Shown: piece after piece, positions 1-10,845 of the stretch
Layout of the letters: every line of letters begins with the position of its first letter
How positions within the stretch are numbered: the stretch's first letter is position 1
From: a virus
Lineage: Duplodnaviria > Heunggongvirae > Uroviricota > Caudoviricetes
Length of the DNA stretch: 16,029 nucleotides
Virus record (IMG/VR): IMGVR_UViG_2684622579_000002
Direction: 5' to 3' (one strand)
Notes under the pieces: model-generated
What the model was told of the DNA's origin: nothing
Databases searched by the model: none
Seen by the model: the letters and a program-made list of their open reading frames with translations, nothing else
Translations under genes and position numbers: made by a program

Positions 1-555
1 ATGCTTATTGGCTATGTACGTGTATCAACAAATGACCAGAATACCGATCTACAACGTAATGCGCTGAACTGTGCAGGATGTGAGCTGATTTTTGAAGACA
101 AGATAAGCGGTACAAAGTCCGACAGACCAGGACTGAAAAAGCTGCTCAGGACATTATCGGCAGGTGACACGCTGGTGGTCTGGAAACTGGACCGACTGGG
201 GCGCAGTATGCGGCATCTTGTCGTGCTGGTGGAGGAGTTGCGCGAACGAGGCATCAACTTTCGTAGTCTGACGGATTCAATTGATACCAGTACCCCAATG
301 GGGCGCTTTTTCTTTCATGTGATGGGTGCCTTGGCTGAAATGGAGCGTGAACTGATTGTTGAACGAACAAAAGCTGGACTGGAAGCAGCTCGCGCACAGG
401 GACGAATTGGTGGACGTCGCCCCAAACTTACACCAGAACAATGGGGGCAGGCCGGACGATTAATTGCATCAGGCGTTCCTCGCCAGAAGGTGGCGATCAT
501 CTATGATGTTGGTATATCGACACTGTATAAGAAGTTTCCGGTCGGAGATAAATGA
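1..555 (+). CDS. pin: Serine recombinase, DNA invertase of the Pin/Hin/Gin family (complete, 184 aa)
   Basis: N-terminus MLIGYVRVSTNDQ with the catalytic Ser context typical of resolvase/invertase enzymes; conserved RLGR and GRFFFHVMGALAEMERELI motifs; C-terminal HTH-like region (IASGVPRQKVAIIYDVGISTLYK). ATG at 1, TGA at 553-555. Confidence 0.85.
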   Translation: MLIGYVRVSTNDQNTDLQRNALNCAGCELIFEDKISGTKSDRPGLKKLLRTLSAGDTLVVWKLDRLGRSMRHLVVLVEELRERGINFRSLTDSIDTSTPMGRFFFHVMGALAEMERELIVERTKAGLEAARAQGRIGGRRPKLTPEQWGQAGRLIASGVPRQKVAIIYDVGISTLYKKFPVGDK

Positions 556-596
556 AACCGTAGCACGTCGTATGCAAGAAGATCGTGCTGCGGTTT
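555..596. repeat. Hairpin repeat copy A (about 13 bp stem with one G-T wobble, 16-nt loop tcgtatgcaagaagat) between convergent pin and GIY-YIG genes
   Basis: Positions 558-580 (ccgtagcacgtcgtatgcaagaa) match 1582-1605 (ccgtagccacgtcgtatgcaagaa) except for one inserted base. Stem arms 555-567 and 584-596 are complementary. Confidence 0.6.
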
Positions 597-615
597 ATGC
601 TTATCACTTAAAGAC

Positions 616-1485
<870 letters not shown>

Positions 1486-1580
1486 CTAAGCCTTTGAATT
1501 TACATAGTACAAAAAAGATACTTTTCCTCATAATGTGAATTAATTTTATGTTTCGTTTGATGATTGGACCGGTCTCGAAA

Positions 1581-1614
1581 CCCGTAGCCACGTCGTATGC
1601 AAGAACGTGCTACG
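1581..1614. repeat. Hairpin repeat copy B (9 bp stem with one bulge, 13-nt loop tcgtatgcaagaa) upstream of the GIY-YIG gene
   Basis: Direct-orientation near-identical copy of the element at 555-596; stem arms 1584-1592 and 1606-1613. Confidence 0.6.
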
Positions 1615-1885
1615 ACTGGCTGGTGAACTTCCGATAGTGCGAGTATTGAATGATTTCCAACTGTTATCGATTTTGCGTATTTTTTGCATGAGAGGATTTT
1701 TACCTCCTCCCGCCGATCCTCCATGGCTTTACGCCTGTGTCTCTGGTCTGCTATGTGCCAATAGCGGACATTGCTAACATTATCTAATACACAACAAAAA
1801 ATGTCAGTCTATATGATATCATCTACTGTCTTTTAAATTCCCCACCTGTCTCAGTTATTAGTGTTAGATAAGGAATCAAAAAATT

Positions 1886-2560
1886 ATGAGAGCATATAAA
1901 TTTAGGTCGGCTTCTCAAATAGCATTTACCCTAGATATAATTTTTAATCGTAGGCTTTTTTGCTCTGACTGGAAAATGTTGAATGACCCAATGGAAGGGA
2001 TGTTTGTTTTCTCTCATCAAACATCTGATGGTTACGACTATAAAAAAGAAATTCAGCAGATAATAGAAGAAAAGAAACGGCTTAAGGTTTGTTCTCTTTC
2101 AGCTACATATGAGTCTCATTTACTTTGGGCTCACTATGCTGGGGGGTTTGATGGTTGCGCTATCGAAATTGAAATCCCAGACAATCATCACAGTATTAAA
2201 CAAATTGAATATAGAGGTGTATTTGCAAATTTAGCAATGCCCAATATTTATAGTCCTGATGAACTTGCTAACCAAGTTTTATCCTCTAAATATCGAGAAT
2301 GGGAATACGAACAGGAAGTTAGGATTTTGCAAACGAATGAGTGGTTTTACTTAGATAAACCAGTTCGACGAGTAATAGCAGGGCATAGAATGCCTTCGGC
2401 ATTATTTGAAGCCATGAATATAATATGCAACTCGATGGGGATTGAATTTTGCCGTACTGGAATTGGTGATGAGGGGATTGATGCCGATTATGTTGAGCCC
2501 TCAAAAATTCTAACGCCGAATAATCATCTTGACTGGGATGTACTAAAAAATGACCGATGA
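1886..2560 (+). CDS. Hypothetical protein, DUF2971-like (224 aa)
   Basis: ORF with ATG at 1886, AGGA 11 nt upstream, AT-rich codon usage. LWAHYAGG and EWEYEQEVRIL motifs resemble what I recall of the DUF2971 family; this is unverified. Confidence 0.5.
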   Translation: MRAYKFRSASQIAFTLDIIFNRRLFCSDWKMLNDPMEGMFVFSHQTSDGYDYKKEIQQIIEEKKRLKVCSLSATYESHLLWAHYAGGFDGCAIEIEIPDNHHSIKQIEYRGVFANLAMPNIYSPDELANQVLSSKYREWEYEQEVRILQTNEWFYLDKPVRRVIAGHRMPSALFEAMNIICNSMGIEFCRTGIGDEGIDADYVEPSKILTPNNHLDWDVLKNDR

Positions 2561-2699
2561 ATTAGAGATTTATATGGTTAGCAGAGTGTAAGGCTCAAGA
2601 TTCCCACGCTCAATAACCAATTGATTGTGAATAACTTTCACCCACAATTGCTCGATATGAAACTATGAGCAATTGTGATGTAAATGTATGCAACAGGTT

Positions 2700-3326
2700 T
2701 TATATCTTATTCCCAAGTATTAACTGTGTTGAGCGAGCCATAATTCTAAATATAAATGGCATACCCTCTGTTAGCTCATCGAGTGTTGGCGTTCGCCTGC
2801 TTGCTTCCAAAAGTATTGAACGCAGAAACTCAACTTCTGGATCACATGCAATTTCTTCATCCAATGCCTTAAGTTTGCCTTTTATTTCTTTTATCTCTGA
2901 CAAACTATGGTTGAGGGTTTCACTTCCCTTTATTTCTGAAAGTATACGTCTTTCATGGTAATTAAGTTGCTCACGGAAAAACAATGCCATACTGGCTTTC
3001 TTTACTAAAAGCTCCATTTCCTTTCTTTTTTTCTCAAGATCTAAGATTTCTTCTTGAGTTGAGTTTTTATTCGTTTTTAGGGATTTTAACTCACTAATAG
3101 TCTTAGTTATGGACTCTAATGAAGTGGCCTCAAGCTGTTCTAAATCTGACTGTGTAATAGCAGGCTTCGACAATGAATAGATGCAAACAATAGTCATTAC
3201 AAAACCTACAATAGCCATCCCATTTAAATAAATTGGCAGTTCCAATTTATTTAAATACGCAAATAAACCACCTATAATGAAATAAGCCATACTTAACAAA
3301 ACCAGTACAGTACAAAACCGCCTCAT
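2700..3326 (-). CDS. Membrane-anchored coiled-coil protein (208 aa), function unknown
   Basis: Two N-terminal hydrophobic segments (VLVLLSMAYFIIGGLFAYL and GMAIVGFVMTIVCIYSL) followed by a charged heptad-like region (EEILDLEKKRKEMELLVKK). GAGG SD 6 nt upstream of the ATG at 3324-3326. Confidence 0.55.
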   Translation of the reverse strand: MRRFCTVLVLLSMAYFIIGGLFAYLNKLELPIYLNGMAIVGFVMTIVCIYSLSKPAITQSDLEQLEATSLESITKTISELKSLKTNKNSTQEEILDLEKKRKEMELLVKKASMALFFREQLNYHERRILSEIKGSETLNHSLSEIKEIKGKLKALDEEIACDPEVEFLRSILLEASRRTPTLDELTEGMPFIFRIMARSTQLILGNKI

Positions 3327-3754
3327 TCTAACCTCGTTAAATTTTTTTAGTTTATATGGTTAACCTACTAAAACCTTGTTCCCAGCATTTCGAGCAGGAA
3401 CTTTACGTTCCTCACTTGAGCAAGCTACTGCGGCAACACAATATCTTAACTTAATAAACTTAACTAGCAAGCTACTCATAACGTCCGCTCTTCGCTCATA
3501 ACAGACATAAACTTCAGTTATGGCATAAAGGTATGCATGCTGGGTGGGGAAAGTATGAAGGAAAAGAAGACTGCTGCGCCGTTTGTCGTCACGTTTATCT
3601 TCATTGGCTATGCAAGTCGTAATACAAGGTGGGACAAAACTGAGACACATAAGGCCTCGCAATGGCTTGCAAGGCTTTACATGTTTTGATGTAGTGGGAC
3701 GTGTGAGCGCAGTGTTGATGGGGTAATGCTTTGAATTAGAAGCGGATTCTTATA

Positions 3755-3800
3755 ATTCGTAATGCGAAGGTCGTAGGTTCGACTCCTATTATCGGCACCA
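3755..3800 (+). other. 46-nt 3' fragment of a tRNA-Thr(CGU)-like gene (anticodon loop through CCA) lacking the 5' half: probable att core or direct repeat at an island junction
   Basis: attcgtaatgcgaaggtcgtaggttcgactcctattatcggcacca contains an anticodon loop with CGT, a T-arm GGTTCGACTCC and an acceptor 3' strand TATCGGC-A-CCA. No complementary GCCGATA acceptor 5' strand is present upstream, so this is not an intact tRNA. Confidence 0.7.
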
Positions 3801-3964
3801 TCACCTAGTTTTCCCAAGTCAACCCACATCAACAAAATCATTTAAAAACATATATATTACGTTATTTTCATACGTTTGAGGTCAACCCTTGTCTCTTGAA
3901 ATCAACACGCGGTTGGGGGCACAATCAGGGGCATGTTCTGTTCGGTCTAGGAAATGTGCCCCCA

Positions 3965-5155
3965 ATGATGCTGAATGCCCGCAAGGTTGAAGCTGCGAAA
4001 GGAAAAGAGAAGAGCTACAAGCTGTTTGATGGAGGTGGCCTATACCTTCAGGTCGAACCTAATGGCTCGCGTTACTGGCGTATGAAATACCGTTTTGCTG
4101 GTAAAGAGAAACGATTGTCCTTTGGTGTTTATCCAACAGTCACACTTGCTGATGCCAGACAAAAACGAGAAGACGCGAAGAAACTACTCGCAGCAGGTGA
4201 AGATCCCGGCGAAGTCAAAAAAGCCAAAAAGCAGGCTTTAAATGCAGCGATTGAGACACTTAACCCATTCAGAGAAGTGGCGTTAGAGTGGCACAAAATG
4301 AAATCACCCAAATGGTCTGAGGGCTATGCTTCCGACATCATTGAGGCATTCGAGAAAGACATTTTCCCGCATATTGGGCACAGACCTATAGCTGATATTC
4401 AGCCCCTTGAACTGCTTGAAGTTCTGAGGTTGATAGAAGCTCGAGGCGCTATGGAGAAAGCGAAGAAAGTCCGTCAGCGATGCGGTGAAGTTTTTCGCTA
4501 TGCCATCGTAACGGGTAGGGCAATCTACAATCCGGCACCGGATCTTGCCAGTGCGATGCAAGGACATGAAGCAGTCCACTATCCATTCCTCAAAGCCAAC
4601 GAACTACCGGAGTTCTTTAATGCCCTTAATTCTTATTCAGGAAGTCCAATTGTATTGTTGGGGGCGCATTTACTTATCCTGACAGGTCTACGAACTGGAG
4701 AACTACGAGCAGGTGAGTGGCGAGAGGTGGATTTTGATAATGCGGTGTGGGAGATCCCAAAAGAACGTATGAAAATGCGTAGGAGCCATATTGTCCCGTT
4801 GTCAAAACAAGCATTATCCCATCTCAAAAGTTTGAAAGAACTAACTGGGAACTACCCGCTGATGTTCCCTGGACGCAACGATCCTAGCAAATTTATGAGT
4901 GAAGCAAGCATTAATCAGGTGTTTAAACGTATTGGATATGCAGGGCGTGTTACGGGGCATGGTTTCAGGCATACGATGAGTACAATCCTACATGAGAAAG
5001 GATTTAACAGCGCTTGGATTGAAACCCAGCTTGCTCATTCGGACAAAAACTCTATTCGTGGAATTTATAACCATGCCCAATATCTCGAAGGGAGAAGAGA
5101 AATGATGCAATGGTATGCTAATTATTTATCTGAGCTAATTGGTACTCATAAATGA
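3965..5155 (+). CDS. int: Tyrosine recombinase, P4-type integrase (about 396 aa)
   Basis: N-terminal MLNARKVEAAKGKEKSYKLFDGGGLYLQV is the characteristic P4-integrase N-terminal arm; C-terminal catalytic region has HGFRHTMST and a downstream tyrosine context (IRGIYNHAQY). Immediately follows the tRNA 3' fragment. Start placed at ATG 3965/3968 rather than the TTG at 3896 given in the ORF track. Confidence 0.9.
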   Translation: MMLNARKVEAAKGKEKSYKLFDGGGLYLQVEPNGSRYWRMKYRFAGKEKRLSFGVYPTVTLADARQKREDAKKLLAAGEDPGEVKKAKKQALNAAIETLNPFREVALEWHKMKSPKWSEGYASDIIEAFEKDIFPHIGHRPIADIQPLELLEVLRLIEARGAMEKAKKVRQRCGEVFRYAIVTGRAIYNPAPDLASAMQGHEAVHYPFLKANELPEFFNALNSYSGSPIVLLGAHLLILTGLRTGELRAGEWREVDFDNAVWEIPKERMKMRRSHIVPLSKQALSHLKSLKELTGNYPLMFPGRNDPSKFMSEASINQVFKRIGYAGRVTGHGFRHTMSTILHEKGFNSAWIETQLAHSDKNSIRGIYNHAQYLEGRREMMQWYANYLSELIGTHK

Positions 5156-6101: not shown

Positions 6102-6392
6102 ATGTTATCTAAACATGATAATACTACTTTGCAACGACCTTCAATGGATTCTCTGATCGATATGAAGTTTATTACTTCCGATTGTTTATTAAGTGATAAA
6201 TGGATTTATCGATTGATTTCTCTGAATCGCTTTCCAAAACCTATAAAAATAGGTCGGATGTCACGATGGCGCGCTGCTGATTATTATAAGTGGCGAGATG
6301 GGTTTGAAGAAAACTCAGGTCAACATTTTGAGGGAATGAGAAATAAGGCAAGAGCAATTAATAAAGGGAATAGATTATCACCTACTCCCTAA
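6102..6392 (+). CDS. alpA: AlpA-family phage transcriptional regulator (small DNA-binding protein)
   Basis: IYRLISLNRFPKPIKIGRMSRWRAADYYKW resembles the AlpA/phage regulatory protein HTH signature; GGAG SD 8 nt upstream of ATG 6102. Shorter starts at 6144 or 6162 are possible. Confidence 0.7.
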   Translation: MLSKHDNTTLQRPSMDSLIDMKFITSDCLLSDKWIYRLISLNRFPKPIKIGRMSRWRAADYYKWRDGFEENSGQHFEGMRNKARAINKGNRLSPTP

Positions 6393-6424
6393 GCCTTAAT
6401 TGATAGTTAGTAATATTTAACTGA

Positions 6425-6598
6425 TTAGCCTTTAGGGTCAATCCCGCGTGATTGGAGTTCTTTGCGTAAAATTCTTTTAATCCAAGTTGCCAACGCGCTA
6501 TCTCCATCTTTGCGCATTTCGTTTTCGAGTTGCAACCTAAAATCGTCGGTAAGACGCATTTGGAATGGTGGAGAACGTTTCTCTTGTGGTGTTGACAT
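6425..6598 (-). CDS. Arc/MetJ-type ribbon-helix-helix DNA-binding protein (57 aa), absent from the supplied ORF track
   Basis: Hand-translated minus-strand ORF MSTPQEKRSPPFQMRLTDDFRLQLENEMRKDGDSALATWIKRILRKELQSRGIDPKG; the PPFQMRL segment resembles the Arc N-terminal beta-strand motif (PQFNLR). Start codon overlaps a palindromic operator. Confidence 0.6.
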   Translation of the reverse strand: MSTPQEKRSPPFQMRLTDDFRLQLENEMRKDGDSALATWIKRILRKELQSRGIDPKG

Positions 6599-6638
6599 GG
6601 TAATTACCCTAGAATATGATGACTACATGGTAATTACC
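6595..6638. promoter_or_regulatory. Two copies of the 14-bp repeat ACATGGTAATTACC, each containing the perfect palindrome GGTAATTACC, 30 bp apart: putative operators
   Basis: Palindromes at 6599-6608 and 6629-6638; the first overlaps the start codon of the Arc-like gene, the second lies in its promoter region, within the divergent intergenic region 6599-6729. Confidence 0.55.
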
Positions 6639-6666
6639 ATTGTAAGTATAGTTCGCTTGTAAAAGC

Positions 6667-6701
6667 AATGCCCGATTGTGCGGGAACACAAATCGGGCAT
6701 T
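6667..6701. promoter_or_regulatory. 14-bp-stem inverted repeat (AATGCCCGATTGTG / CACAAATCGGGCATT, loop cgggaa) in the leader of the replication operon
   Basis: Arms 6667-6680 and 6687-6701 are complementary with one bulge; located 29 nt upstream of ATG 6730; no U-tract follows. Confidence 0.45.
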
Positions 6702-6729
6702 TAACCAACCGTTATAAGAGGTAACGAAG

Positions 6730-6906
6730 ATGGCTAAACAGAAGTGTACCTGGTTATTTGCGGCGATCAACCGCAGTCAACGCAATGCCCGTCCTGTGAT
6801 GTTAAGGATCACCGCAGATAACGAGCGGTCAGCGCGGCGCAGACTTGCCCCGGACTATGTACTGAGCTTTGCCGGGCGCATTCCCTGCGGAGGTGAACAT
6901 GCGTAA
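6730..6906 (+). CDS. Small protein (58 aa), first gene of the replication operon; possibly Icd-like
   Basis: Hand-translated MAKQKCTWLFAAINRSQRNARPVMLRITADNERSARRRLAPDYVLSFAGRIPCGGEHA; AAGAGG SD 8 nt upstream; stop overlaps the next gene start (ATGCGTAA). Family assignment is from memory and weak. Confidence 0.5.
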   Translation: MAKQKCTWLFAAINRSQRNARPVMLRITADNERSARRRLAPDYVLSFAGRIPCGGEHA

Positions 6907-7258
6907 TTATCCGCACCCCGGCGAACGCTGGCAGCATGAACGTGGCTGGACGGTCACGATTATCCGATTAATAGAAGCCTCGCCCTCTGTGGCGCTGGTT
7001 AATCCTGAATTCAGCTGTGAAGTGCTGATACGTCATGACAGCGACAACCAGCTTTCTTCCTGCCCTCTGGCATGGTTTGAACAGCGGTATACGCGCCTGT
7101 TTGATGTACCGCTCTTTAAGCCTGCACCAGCTCCTGCAGGCGGTAGTGGTTCCGGCCCGCTGACACTGCATCCGTCTGTGCTATTTATCCGCTGGCGGGA
7201 GCGTAGCATATGGCGTTCTGCTGAGCCTGACGACGGTCACTATTCAAAGTTTCTCTGA
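6899..7258 (+). CDS. Hypothetical protein (120 aa)
   Basis: ATG at 6899 preceded by GGAGGT; GC-rich codon usage consistent with neighbours; the ORF track extended it to an upstream alternative start at 6869. Confidence 0.5.
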   Translation: MRNYPHPGERWQHERGWTVTIIRLIEASPSVALVNPEFSCEVLIRHDSDNQLSSCPLAWFEQRYTRLFDVPLFKPAPAPAGGSGSGPLTLHPSVLFIRWRERSIWRSAEPDDGHYSKFL

Positions 7259-7289
7259 CAAAATACCGCTGAAAACGGAGTAATCCACG

Positions 7290-7574
7290 ATGAATATTTC
7301 AAACGGGCACAACGGTGCTCAGGGCCACACTTTGCCTGAAAAACACAATACCGGTGCTTTTGCCTATGGGTTGTCAGAGGACAGTTTCGGAAAGCTGACC
7401 CGCGCAAGAAATGCCTGCGACATGCTCCAGCTTCTCTTTTCTGAATACCCGTCTCAGGCCGGAGCACTGGACGCTGGCTGTGCGCATGGTGTCGCCGCGC
7501 TGATGGAGTACCTGCTGGCAGATTTGACGGATATTGCACACAGTTGCGCACTGATTGAAGGAGGTGCCAGATGA
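7290..7574 (+). CDS. Hypothetical protein (94 aa)
   Basis: ATG 7290 with GGAG 8 nt upstream; stop overlaps the next start. Confidence 0.5.
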   Translation: MNISNGHNGAQGHTLPEKHNTGAFAYGLSEDSFGKLTRARNACDMLQLLFSEYPSQAGALDAGCAHGVAALMEYLLADLTDIAHSCALIEGGAR

Positions 7575-7954
7575 ACCAGCCGCAGGTTTCCATTTTCCCG
7601 GCAGAAATGACCACCGCGCTTTACCGGCGGGCTATTGCTTCAGCATGGCGGCAGAAAATGCTGAACGAAACTGGCAGTGATCAGTATGGTCCGCACAGCC
7701 TGACGGTGGAGCGTATTGAAATGGCCATTGCGCTGCATATCGAGTGCGTACTGATTAACGAGTACGGCGAAGTGCAGGGCGCCGCTACCGCGCTGGCACT
7801 GCTGACTGACATGCTGGAGCCGTCACTGCTGACCGCGCCGCCGGTACTGACCGCGCGCGGCTGTGAAGTGATGGCGGAGATGTACCGCACGCTTCCGGCG
7901 GCCTTTGATGACTTCTGCAGTACCGGTGTGACGTTGTATGAGGGGGAAGTATGA
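7571..7954 (+). CDS. Hypothetical protein (127 aa)
   Basis: ATG 7571 with GGAGGT SD; ATGA overlaps at both ends indicate translational coupling into the primase gene. Confidence 0.55.
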   Translation: MNQPQVSIFPAEMTTALYRRAIASAWRQKMLNETGSDQYGPHSLTVERIEMAIALHIECVLINEYGEVQGAATALALLTDMLEPSLLTAPPVLTARGCEVMAEMYRTLPAAFDDFCSTGVTLYEGEV

Positions 7955-10623
7955 CAATACGGACGGTTACGCAGATTTCAGCCGCCGCACGGGGGAAATG
8001 GCCCGTTATTCTGCAGATGCTGCGTATTGATGTACCTGAAAACGGCAGGCACGGTCCCTGCCCGAAATGTGGGGGCAAGGATCGTTTTCGCCTTGATGAC
8101 CTTGACGGGCGCGGGACGTGGATCTGCAGCCAGTGTGGCAATGGTGACGGTCTGGATCTGGTTAAGCTCGTAACCGGTTACAGCGTCAGAAAGGCTGCGC
8201 AGGAGGTGGCGCAGGTGCTTAATGTGCCGGATGTGCAGGAACTGCCTGTTAAGCCTGCCAGACAAAAAGCCCCTAAACGAGACATGGGTCTTACCGTGGC
8301 GGCGCTGATGAAAGAGAGCCACACGGGAGAAAGCGCCTATCTGACAGGAAAAGGGTTCGCCGGATACCCGGCCTCTCTGACCGGAAGCGTGCAGCATATC
8401 AGCGGTAAGGATTTTCCTGCCGGTTCCCTGCTGTTACCACTCACGACCAACACCGGAGCCGTGACCGGTGCACAGCTTATCGCCCCGACGGGTGAAAAAA
8501 GCATACTGCCCGGCAGCACGATGAAAGGCGCGTTTGTGTCGCTCAGCCCGTTACCGTCTGAACCACCGGTACAGGTGGTGATTACCGAAGGTTACGCTAC
8601 GGCGCTGACGGTAAGCCAGCTCACTGCCGGATGCGTAGTGGCTGCCATATCTGCGGGCAACCTGCCCAATGTGGCGCAGTCGCTGCGGGCACGCTGGCCT
8701 GAGGTAAAAATTATCATCGCCGGTGATAACGATTTTCAGGACGGGGGTGAGAATCCCGGCAGAGCCTTTGCTGAACGGGCGGCAAAAGCTGTTGGCGGCT
8801 GGATGACGCTGCCACCAGGAGAGATTAAGGCTGACTGGAATGACTTTCATCGGGAGCACGGTATTACCCGTGCCCGTGAAGCCTTTCGCAACGGTCTGGT
8901 ACTGTGCGGGGAAGGCCGCACGCAACTGCCGCACGGGTTCCGTCTTACCCAGGAATATCTCTGGTATGAAAAGCAGGTACAGCGCAACGGTGAGACGGAG
9001 ATCCAGAACGTCAAAATATGCAGCCCGCTGCGCGTGACGGCAATTACCTGCGATGCCGATGGCGGTAACTTCGGACGACTGCTGGAATGGGAAGATACGT
9101 GGGGTGAGTGTCGCCGCTGGGCGATGCCAATGGAAATGCTGAGCGGCAGTGGTGAGGAACTGCGCCGGGTACTGCTGGTTAACGGGCTGTCTTATATCAG
9201 CACCACCGGTGAGGCACGCGCACGCCTGATGGAATATATCTCACTGTGTAAACCGGAACGCCGCGTGACCTGCGTCAGTCGTACTGGCTGGCATGGTCAG
9301 GTTTACGTCCTGCAGGATGAGGTCAGCGGTGAAGGTGCAGAGGGTGTCATTCTCCAGACCACTTCCGTGCAGGGGCGTGATTTCCGCGTGTCGGGCACAA
9401 CAGAGGAATGGCGGGAGCATGTATCCCGCTACTGTACCGGCAACTCCCGCGTGGCATTTGCTGTCAGCCTGGCCTTTGCTGCACCACTGTTACGGCTGGT
9501 TGGTATGGACGGCGGCGGCTACCACCTCAAAGGGGAATCGACAGACGGTAAGACCACCACCATGAAAGCGGCAACCTCCGTCTGCGGCGGGCCTGACTAC
9601 TGGCAGACATGGCGGGCCACCGGCAACGCGCTGGAGGGATGCGCCAGCCGCCGTAACGATGCCGCCATGATGCTTGATGAGATCCGGGAAGTTGACGGAC
9701 GCGAGGCAGGCAATATCGCCTACATGCTGGCAAACGGTCAGGGCAAGGGCCGTGCCGGTACGGACGGTGAGCTGCGTACCCGTAAGCAGTGGCGCCTGTT
9801 GTTCTTTTCAACTGGCGAGTTGTCTCTGACCGAACATGCGGCAAAGGCCGGTGAGCGTACTTTTGCCGGGATGGAAGTCAGGATGATCCAGATCCCCAGC
9901 GATTCCGGGAAGTTTGGCGTTTTTGAGGAGCTGCACGGCTTCGACAGCGGCAAGGCTCTGGCAGAGCATCTTGAATGGGCCACGTCCTGCTACTACGGTT
10001 CGCCGTTCCGGGAGTGGCTGAAAGCACTGACCGCTGATCTTAACGGACTAACGGCACAGGCAAAATCGCTGATGAAGGAATATGCTGCCGCCCTGACTCC
10101 GAAAGATGCAGGCAATCAGGTGGGCCGGGCTGTGAACCGCTTTGCACTGGTGGCGATGGCAGGTGAACTGGCAACCCGTCTGGGTATCACCGGCTGGCCT
10201 GAGGGTGAAGCACTGCGGGCAACCCGCGTCTGCCTGAACGCATGGCTGAAAGATCGCGGGCACACCGCCAATCAGGAAGATATCGCCGCACTGGAGCAGG
10301 TTCGCAGTTTCTTTACCGCGAATCAGTACAGCCGCTTTGCAGACTGGTATGACGAGCGCAACCGCCCCGGCAATATGGTGGGCTGGCGCAGGGTGGAGAA
10401 AGGCAGTACCGCGCAGGGCACGGAAGCTGTCACTACGTTCTATGTCATGCCGTCCGGCTGGAAAGAAATCTGCAGGGGATTTGACCCGCGCAAGGTGGCG
10501 CGTCTGTGCGCAGATCGTGGATACCTGCTGCCCTCCACTGATGGCAAACTCCAGACAACCATTCGCCCGCCAGAGATGAATCCCCGCAGGCTCTATGTCT
10601 TCAACAGCGAGGTGCCGGGTTAA
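7951..10623 (+). CDS. P4-alpha-like primase-helicase (890 aa): zinc ribbon, TOPRIM and C-terminal P-loop NTPase domains
   Basis: N-terminal CPKCGG...CSQCG zinc-binding motif; TOPRIM-like VVITEGYATALTV and IIIAGDNDFQD; Walker A-like GESTDGKTT. GAGGGGGA SD upstream of ATG 7951. Confidence 0.9.
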   Translation: MTIRTVTQISAAARGKWPVILQMLRIDVPENGRHGPCPKCGGKDRFRLDDLDGRGTWICSQCGNGDGLDLVKLVTGYSVRKAAQEVAQVLNVPDVQELPVKPARQKAPKRDMGLTVAALMKESHTGESAYLTGKGFAGYPASLTGSVQHISGKDFPAGSLLLPLTTNTGAVTGAQLIAPTGEKSILPGSTMKGAFVSLSPLPSEPPVQVVITEGYATALTVSQLTAGCVVAAISAGNLPNVAQSLRARWPEVKIIIAGDNDFQDGGENPGRAFAERAAKAVGGWMTLPPGEIKADWNDFHREHGITRAREAFRNGLVLCGEGRTQLPHGFRLTQEYLWYEKQVQRNGETEIQNVKICSPLRVTAITCDADGGNFGRLLEWEDTWGECRRWAMPMEMLSGSGEELRRVLLVNGLSYISTTGEARARLMEYISLCKPERRVTCVSRTGWHGQVYVLQDEVSGEGAEGVILQTTSVQGRDFRVSGTTEEWREHVSRYCTGNSRVAFAVSLAFAAPLLRLVGMDGGGYHLKGESTDGKTTTMKAATSVCGGPDYWQTWRATGNALEGCASRRNDAAMMLDEIREVDGREAGNIAYMLANGQGKGRAGTDGELRTRKQWRLLFFSTGELSLTEHAAKAGERTFAGMEVRMIQIPSDSGKFGVFEELHGFDSGKALAEHLEWATSCYYGSPFREWLKALTADLNGLTAQAKSLMKEYAAALTPKDAGNQVGRAVNRFALVAMAGELATRLGITGWPEGEALRATRVCLNAWLKDRGHTANQEDIAALEQVRSFFTANQYSRFADWYDERNRPGNMVGWRRVEKGSTAQGTEAVTTFYVMPSGWKEICRGFDPRKVARLCADRGYLLPSTDGKLQTTIRPPEMNPRRLYVFNSEVPG

Positions 10624-10649: not shown

Positions 10650-10845
10650 GGGTAACAGGTGAAACAGGTGGAACAACCGTATTTTACAGGGCTGAATCTG
10701 TTCCACCTTCTGAAATAGTGAGGTGGAACAGATGTAACGCCAGCCAATCCGCTGTTCCACCTTGTTACCCGCGATGTTCCACCGGTGCAGTGTATATAAA
10801 TGCTTTATAAAACAAATGGGTAACACATGTTTCACCTGTTACACC
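10650..10845. repeat. Iteron cluster: five copies of the 9-mer GGTGGAACA/TGTTCCACC in alternating orientation, bounded by a 15/16-bp inverted repeat, with an adjacent AT-rich tract
   Basis: GGTGGAACA at 10667-10675 and 10722-10730; TGTTCCACC at 10699-10707, 10753-10761 and 10775-10783; the forward-reverse pair recurs with 55-bp periodicity. Outer inverted repeat GGTAACAGGTGAAACA (10651-10666) versus TGTTTCACCTGTTACA (10828-10843). AT-rich tract gtgtatataaatgctttataaaacaaatg at about 10790-10817. Confidence 0.65.

Follow-up and report, generated by a model that had tools for sequence, protein, structure and literature searches.

The hairpin at positions 6667-6701 of the window (the whole stretch of 16,029 nt analysed here) is likely to be the 3' stem-loop, and probably the intrinsic terminator, of a SymR-like cis-antisense RNA of about 77 nt that would cover the start of an icd-like gene. 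We give this reading a probability of roughly 0.7. We observe a minus-strand-specific two-stem structure, a conserved promoter embedded in the icd-like ORF, a U-rich tail, a SymR-like architecture, and mutual exclusivity with the C4/CI RNA. From these sequence features we infer that an RNA is produced, where its ends lie, and that it has a regulatory effect.

The inverted repeat lies far above chance expectation. On the plus strand, positions 6667-6701 read AATGCCCGATTGTG-CGGGAA-CAC-A-AATCGGGCATT. A repeat search finds perfect 11-nt arms (6667-6677 and 6691-6701), which folding extends by a one-base bulge (A) and three further pairs around a 6-nt loop; the 14-bp stem described in an earlier note on this DNA is thus real. 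The hairpin has a dG of -18.7 kcal/mol as plus-strand RNA and -20.0 kcal/mol as minus-strand RNA, with z-scores of -4.7 and -5.8, respectively, and 0 of 200 shuffles fold equally well. Furthermore, the window holds four perfect stems of at least 11 bp (loops of 3-15 nt) against a mean of 0.06 per dinucleotide shuffle, any such stem being present in just 4% of shuffles. Two more perfect hairpins of at least 11 bp, at 2643-2677 (CACAATTGCTC...GAGCAATTGTG) and 3222-3256 (the AT-only palindrome ATTTAAATAAATTGG...CCAATTTATTTAAAT), are also far above the shuffle expectation.

The hairpin is not an intrinsic terminator of the plus strand. Its plus-strand tail is UAACCAACCG in the window, without a U-tract, and CUGACCAA in relatives, neither of which makes a rho-independent terminator. 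The earlier statement that no U-tract follows the stem is correct for the plus strand and incorrect for the minus strand, where GCTTTTAC comes after the stem.

The window carries a P4-like satellite, and the hairpin sits in its early control region. The relevant features are as follows.

3896-5155: integrase
6102-6392: AlpA-like HTH protein (weak match)
6425-6598, minus strand: divergent 57-aa protein (MSTPQEKRSPPFQMRLTDDF...), presumed ribbon-helix-helix (RHH) repressor
6592-6620, plus strand: predicted sense promoter TTGACA-17-TATGAT (11/12 matches; predicted TSS near 6627)
6597-6640: two ATGGTAATTACC operator-like repeats, ATGGTAATTACCCT at 6597-6610 and the perfect palindrome ATGGTAATTACCAT at 6627-6640
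6730-6906, plus strand: Icd-like putative cell-division inhibitor of 58 aa (NCBIfam NF033153, 84 bits; RefSeq identical locus)

The Icd-like gene is the first of its operon and is followed by three small ORFs and a TOPRIM/DUF927 primase (7951-10623); psu-like and delta-like genes come after the primase operon. As the earlier note had placed it, the hairpin lies in the leader of this operon, 3' of the operator-like repeats and 5' of the Shine-Dalgarno (SD) sequence and the ATG at 6730, at about +40 to +75 of the predicted sense transcript. Equivalent sense promoters are visible in loci with other hairpin classes. The operator-like repeats overlap the -35 element and the TSS of the sense promoter, and the repeat search finds no sequence similarity between them and the hairpin. 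On the minus strand, a distance of 68 nt separates the hairpin from the divergent ORF downstream of it. The product of this ORF has no Pfam, NCBIfam, PHROG or PDB match and is presumed to be RHH from sequence pattern and position. In the identical locus of E. coli VG12A2, RefSeq carries no ncRNA annotation at the hairpin.

The icd-like module is widespread among Enterobacteria. We find it in 333 of 5426 complete E. coli genomes, as well as in Enterobacter, Citrobacter, Pantoea, Shigella and Pseudocitrobacter; records from Klebsiella, Leclercia and Salmonella name the Icd-like protein too. NCTC11121, another carrier, is 99.1% identical, and the L002-class element occurs in E. coli ST167 or ST410 isolates. 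In VG12A2, an identical satellite module is located at tRNA-Thr beside proBA, with IS1. The window has no tRNA gene, and its DNA left of the integrase (1-3900) is of prophage type (pinE invertase, a LEM-3-like GIY-YIG protein and an S1 peptidase). These different flanks indicate that insertion sites differ between copies of the same satellite control region. Directly 3' of the primase stop, the window also has eight copies of the iteron GGTGGAACA in both orientations (10658-10845; five exact, three with one mismatch), which include a perfect hairpin at 10697-10732. The whole window has nine iteron matches, a number reached by 0 of 200 shuffles. This region is probably the ori/crr-like primase-binding region of the satellite, because the iterons resemble the annotated P4 ori type-1 repeat TGTTCACC (= GGTGAACA).

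The predicted antisense RNA consists of an outer helix enclosing an anti-SD stem-loop, followed by the reported hairpin and a tail. Its parts, and the promoter assigned to it, are the following.

6743-6770, minus strand: predicted sigma-70 promoter, with -35 TTGATC (6770-6765), a 16-nt spacer and -10 TACACT (6748-6743)
6659-6735, minus strand: predicted cis-antisense RNA of 75-77 nt, in the order 5' AGCCAU, P1, SL1, linker, SL2, tail
6703-6735, minus strand: putative outer helix P1, in which AGCCA (6735-6731) pairs with UGGUU (6707-6703)
6709-6727, minus strand: putative SL1, with stem UCGUUA/UAACGG and the 7-nt loop CCUCUUA
6667-6701, minus strand: SL2, the reported hairpin, AAUGCCCGAUU-U-GUGU[UCCC]GCACAAUCGGGCAUU, a putative 3' intrinsic terminator
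6659-6666, minus strand: U-rich tail GCUUUUAC, with the predicted RNA 3' end near 6659-6661 (to 6663)

The SL1 loop is an anti-SD sequence, complementary to AAGAGG at 6716-6721. The 5' strand of P1 is complementary to the start codon and GCT codon of the icd-like gene, and its 3' strand sits in a conserved linker, UGGUYAR.

Selection acts on the single-stranded structure of the minus strand. We gathered 145 loci by alignment of Icd-like proteins and defined a short-Icd subfamily ("MAKQKCTW..." proteins, at least 57% identical). In megablast comparisons, the homology of relatives breaks off at window positions 6670 or 6704, that is, at the hairpin. A hairpin recurs at this position in every short-Icd locus that retains at least 130 nt of upstream sequence, and its stem comes in at least five unrelated sequences. 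Of 48 unique variants, 45 form a more stable fold in this region as the minus strand, and the mean advantage is 5.6 kcal/mol. Across 28 distinct hairpins, the minus strand has 211 G-C, 126 A-U and 70 G.U pairs, and 0 A.C mismatches, which would be wobbles on the plus strand; 17% of stem positions carry a G.T pair that exists on one strand but not on the other.

Covariation supports the same structure. We built a covariance model, R1, for the putative RNA and aligned 35 distinct sequences to it; in the window, it matches 6659-6735 on the minus strand with 90.4 bits. Helix 3 (the reported hairpin) is 98.8% paired, with double changes in 10 of its 14 pairs, and helix 2 (the anti-SD stem-loop) is 86.7% paired, with double changes in 4 of 6. 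None of 500 shuffles reaches these pairing and covariation values. Sliding the 3' partners of helix 3 by 1-3 columns lowers the paired fraction to 31-47%. Read as the plus strand, helix 3 is 85.5% paired and has 2 G.U pairs, compared with 67 on the minus strand, while helix 2 has 48 G.U pairs on the minus strand and 2 on the plus. Helix P1, including one G.U pair, is invariant in 35/35 sequences and hence carries no covariation information. These pair counts come from an alignment fitted to the minus-strand model, and the model-free tests (folding of each variant and pair counts in distinct hairpins) agree with them. A MAFFT/RNAalifold consensus was weak, with divergent classes mis-registered, and per-sequence tests and the covariance-model alignment were used instead.

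The covariation comparison proposed in the earlier note thus shows that the pairing of the dyad is kept among related elements. Structure is maintained while sequence changes, as expected of a selected element acting at the RNA level, an option that the note had considered. Because this selection is specific to the minus strand, it excludes a symmetric dsDNA operator and argues against a structure in the sense leader. The note's suggestion of a palindrome bound by AlpA or a helper-phage factor does not fit a stem whose sequence varies while pairing is kept and whose wobbles are strand-specific. Rather than a conserved symmetric half-site, we find a varying stem, 67-70 strand-specific wobbles and an asymmetric bulge. 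Control of read-through in the sense transcript, also suggested there, is disfavoured by the better minus-strand folding in 45 of the 48 variants.

The putative 5' end is defined by a promoter that is conserved within the icd-like coding sequence. The pattern TTGA[TA][CT]-16-TA[CAG]ACT-7-AGCCAT is present in 56 of 56 unique homologues. In the window, the predicted -10 element is followed by 7 nt to A6735, the predicted antisense TSS inside the icd-like ORF; the promoter spans codons 5-14 and matches the consensus at 8 of 12 positions. Among 41 unique ORF starts, third-codon positions are invariant only in codons 2, 3, 5, 6, 13 and 14 (codon 2 GCT, 5 AAG, 6 TGT/TTT/TCT, 13 ATC/TTC, 14 AAC), and ATGGCT is invariant in all 41. 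The third position of codon 6 is fixed despite a residue change (C/F/S). These invariant codons coincide with the predicted TSS, -10 and -35, whereas other degenerate sites have an entropy of about 0.4-1.7 bits; the enrichment of invariant sites in the promoter core is significant (Fisher p = 0.004). A constraint on translation initiation could be an alternative cause of the invariance of codons 2-3. It would not easily explain that of codons 5, 6, 13 and 14.

Many, though not all, variants have a terminator-like 3' end. In about 20 of 28 variants, the minus strand continues beyond the hairpin with G[CU] and a U-run (e.g., GUUUUUUUG, GCCUUUUUC and GCUUUUUUUUU), and a terminator scan scored the homologous minus-strand hairpin of locus L088 as terminator-like. 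The scan did not call the window hairpin, whose tail GCUUUUAC has four U after GC, under the scan rule of 5 of 8, with a stem of -20 kcal/mol; nor did it call the L039 hairpin with its internal U.U mismatch. In one large class (L002, L010, L043, L047 and L053) and in L083 and L089, no U-run immediately follows the hairpin. Termination cannot therefore be the sole role of the hairpin. It is best described as a 3' terminal stem-loop, with termination as its probable, and maybe not its only, role in this element.

Some loci have a second candidate site for 3' end formation. In the class with GGTGCGATTCACC operators, which has no U-run after the main hairpin, an operator-palindrome hairpin and a U-run lie about 10 nt beyond it. 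In the loci of this class (L002, L010, L043, L047 and L053), the operator palindrome AAGGUGAAUCGCACCUU folds into a small hairpin that is followed by a U-run (e.g., CUUUUUUAAA). The antisense transcript of these five loci may end there, at about 110 nt. If true, this would link operator sequence to RNA 3' end formation.

Hairpin class co-segregates perfectly with the cluster of the divergent protein, while the anti-SD half and icd are common to all. This places a module boundary in the conserved linker (TGACCAA). The divergent small proteins (window 6425-6640 and L002-L089) form five sequence clusters, of which three are RHH-like, with a common C-terminal motif WIKRILRKELQSRG, and two are YlcI/YnfO-like. 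Operator palindrome and hairpin class are both cluster-specific, forming a swappable module with the protein. The co-segregation fits simple physical linkage. A candidate promoter for the repressor gene, TTGCTT-18-TACAAT, lies at 6668-6639 on the minus strand; its -35 element overlaps the hairpin base and U tail, and its predicted TSS falls within the second operator.

The class-specific SL2 is always found with its repressor/operator module, in contrast to the universal anti-SD half. Under the broader immunity reading considered below, which we regard as unlikely, SL2 could therefore be a specificity determinant, acting through pairing kinetics, a module-specific RNA-binding partner, or read-through into the repressor gene. 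If true, this would define heteroimmune satellite classes.

The icd-like ORF also contains GCAATGCCCGTCCTGTG (6782-6798), a copy of the left arm of the hairpin that is 80% complementary to the right arm. We considered an arrangement like P4 seqA/B/C, with this as a third copy (GCAATGCCCG..CCTGTG, 6782-6798), and rejected it. The complementarity is confined to the class of the window and is probably a coincidence, because the icd-like ORF is conserved and the hairpin sequences differ in other classes.

Two mutually exclusive RNA solutions precede the same gene family. In P4 (L015), the C4/CI RNA (Rfam RF01695, 74.9 bits) lies directly upstream of an Icd-like ORF, with an a1b1/seqA-type target further upstream. 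The hairpin occupies the position where P4 has this RNA, which bears out the likeness to P4 immunity control that the hairpin had first suggested. The window has no RF01695 match at the gathering threshold, and 6200-7400 has none at E values up to 10. Among L090-L145, with 51 unique readable upstream sequences (at most 63% identical), all but L128 have a C4-type sequence upstream. R1 has no match in P4 or in 56 C4-type loci, and exactly one minus-strand site, ending at ATG+6, in each assessable short-Icd locus. Across 136 loci, C4-type and R1-type RNAs are mutually exclusive.

The P4 Icd-like ORF lies within the old "cI protein" annotation. PHROG and RefSeq label the P4 137-aa ORF (L015 1246-1662) and Icd-like proteins, including that of the window (6730-6906), as "transcriptional repressor". 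The 137-aa ORF overlaps the CI RNA (Rfam C4, L015 1323-1410), and only its C-terminal third is Icd-like. The label seems to go back to the old P4 "cI gene product" ORF.

Other explanations of the hairpin account for part of these data. The minus-strand structure might instead lie in the divergent repressor mRNA, as part of a long 5' leader or attenuator, with a promoter in the icd-like ORF and read-through to 6598-6425. The repressor ORF is indeed 68 nt beyond the hairpin on the same strand, hairpin class and repressor cluster co-segregate perfectly, and the window has a weak U-tract, with none in several classes. Yet a U-run is clear in most classes, L088 has a textbook terminator hairpin, and the full-length two-stem SymR-like architecture stops at the hairpin; there is also the separate candidate repressor promoter (6668-6639), and simple linkage equally accounts for the co-segregation. 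We consider a repressor leader distinctly unlikely. It is also compatible with a SymR-like antisense RNA, since terminator read-through could feed the repressor. It is less likely still that the hairpin acts in the sense mRNA leader by stabilising the 5' end, offering an RNase III site, or modulating read-through or translation of the replication operon. Such a role would suit its location at about +40 to +75 of a transcript from a strong predicted promoter and its good plus-strand fold in the window (-18.7 kcal/mol). The 67-70 minus-only wobbles, against 0-2 plus-only ones, become C.A mismatches on the plus strand, where folding is weaker in 45 of 48 variants and no U-tract follows.

Readings at the DNA level are very improbable. 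If a dimeric protein (AlpA, the repressor or a helper-phage factor) bound it as dsDNA, the near-perfect dyad would stand beside operator-like repeats and change with repressor class, as co-evolving operators would. It bears no likeness to those repeats, however, and symmetric Watson-Crick partners would be expected on both strands, rather than G.T at 17% of stem positions on one strand only; the bulge position, the apical GUG/CAC and the loop are conserved, while the half-site sequences are not. A minus-strand ssDNA hairpin, such as a priming or origin signal in satellite replication, would tolerate G.T wobbles, and strand asymmetry alone cannot tell RNA from ssDNA. However, a conserved promoter, a 5' end placed at the start codon, an anti-SD loop and a U tail are all characteristic of RNA, and the iterons of the likely origin are elsewhere (10658-10845), which leaves this reading with equally slim odds.

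We propose that the antisense RNA would silence the icd-like gene. Transcription would run leftward from A6735, six bases inside the icd-like ORF, under a promoter in codons 5-14. The RNA would cross the start codon and the SD sequence, display the anti-SD in the SL1 loop, and end after the hairpin at GCUUUU. It would be perfectly complementary to the translation initiation region of the mRNA from the operator-controlled promoter at 6592-6620. Made constitutively, it would pair with leaky sense transcripts and so block ribosome binding and/or promote decay of the Icd-like mRNA, keeping a toxic Icd-like protein silent in the quiescent satellite. This would add a second layer on top of operator-mediated repression, and the strong sense promoter, once derepressed, would out-titrate the antisense RNA. 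More speculatively, the downstream primase operon might be silenced via translational polarity. A rationale for tight control comes from prophage-encoded exclusion, in which a toxic effector role has been ascribed to Icd-like proteins in at least one system (bioRxiv 10.1101/2023.04.06.535777).

A broader role in immunity is conceivable. The antisense RNA and the divergent repressor might form the immunity system of a large P4-like branch that lost C4/CI, with the block on the icd-like gene imposing Rho-dependent polarity on the primase operon. We regard this extension as unlikely; if true, such polarity would be the functional equivalent of P4 CI immunity.

P4-like satellites and PICI-type islands are common in Enterobacteria and carry anti-phage defence hotspots. 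Our literature search found no description of an antisense RNA to icd-like genes in P4-like satellites, nor of how toxic early genes or replication are silenced in P4-like elements without CI RNA. If true, a conserved, SymR-like antisense RNA located at the gene that opens the early operon would provide a concrete mechanism, and would represent a family missing from Rfam and from genome annotation. Cis-antisense RNAs over the ribosome-binding site (RBS) of a toxic gene are a known kind; this instance, and its role as a counterpart of C4/CI in a P4-like branch, appear to be new. Such an RNA would further suggest that the C4 RNA (P4/P1) and a P22-immI-like repressor with antisense RNA are interchangeable cassettes before the icd-like gene.

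The closest functional parallel is the C4/CI RNA of P1/P7 and P4. In P1, c4 RNA keeps icd from being translated and thereby prevents expression further downstream. The gene family, the place and the RNA-level silencing at the start of the early operon are the same. However, C4/CI RNAs come from the same strand as their target, are processed from the operon transcript and use short loop complementarities, while the RNA predicted here would be cis-antisense, from the opposite strand.

The layout of the control region recalls that of P22 immI. The P22 sar RNA is a short cis-antisense RNA that starts inside the gene it regulates and covers its ribosome-binding site. The immI region (mnt, arc, sar, ant) is a precedent for a small repressor combined with a cis-antisense RNA (PMC2629481). 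Both regions have a small divergent repressor, palindromic operators over a strong promoter, and a cis-antisense RNA (here predicted) over an RBS. They differ in the regulated gene, which is ant in P22 and icd-like here, and the element here is a satellite. Besides SymR, no Rfam family gives a credible match to the region at E values up to 10, and no likeness to sar in sequence or structure is detectable.

Similar RNAs control other tightly regulated or toxic genes. FinP (target traJ) and the type I antitoxins Sok and IstR are two-stem-loop antisense RNAs of about 70-80 nt that lie over an RBS and end in a terminator hairpin; FinO/ProQ or Hfq are the chaperones associated with such RNAs. Their families and targets differ from those described here.

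SymR of E. coli K-12 is the closest structural parallel. It is a 77-nt RNA whose promoter is embedded in its target ORF, symE (Kawano et al. 2007, PMC1891008). At the gathering threshold, the whole window has no Rfam family. A permissive scan matches SymR (RF01809) full-length at 6735-6664 on the minus strand with 31.6 bits (E = 9e-4), short of the gathering score of 61, and the SymR model also matches L002 (24.6 bits); other permissive matches (CRISPR-DR50, algC and a miRNA) were at chance level and were rejected. Detection is reciprocal. In the 4-kb mcrB-hsdS region of K-12, the best R1 match is the annotated symR, at full length and with the exact 5' end (2336-2417, 25.6 bits, E about 8e-6, a rough value from a shortened calibration).

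The two RNAs differ in target and context. The target here is Icd-like (NF033153), whereas SymE is an AbrB-fold, SOS-induced toxin, and homology between them is unsupported (BLASTP E = 0.17). The icd-like gene belongs to the early operon of a P4-like satellite with a divergent repressor, whereas symE is a LexA-controlled chromosomal gene. Because the targets are unrelated and the score is below the Rfam threshold, we describe the predicted RNA as SymR-like in architecture, not as a family member. The similarity is partly forced by any anti-SD/anti-AUG design, and either homology or convergence is possible. Regardless of origin, SymR and the predicted RNA both have an outer helix and a stem-loop that covers the SD region, and both carry a long 3' hairpin whose apex is GUGUUnnnGCAC; in SymR, too, this hairpin lacks a classical U-tract. 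Their 5' ends, AGUCAU in SymR and AGCCAU here, both map 6 nt into the ORF and 7 nt past the -10 element, which for SymR is TAGAAT, inside symE. By sequence geometry, K-12 symR and the predicted RNA are alike in being antisense to the SD and start codon of a target whose ORF contains their promoter.
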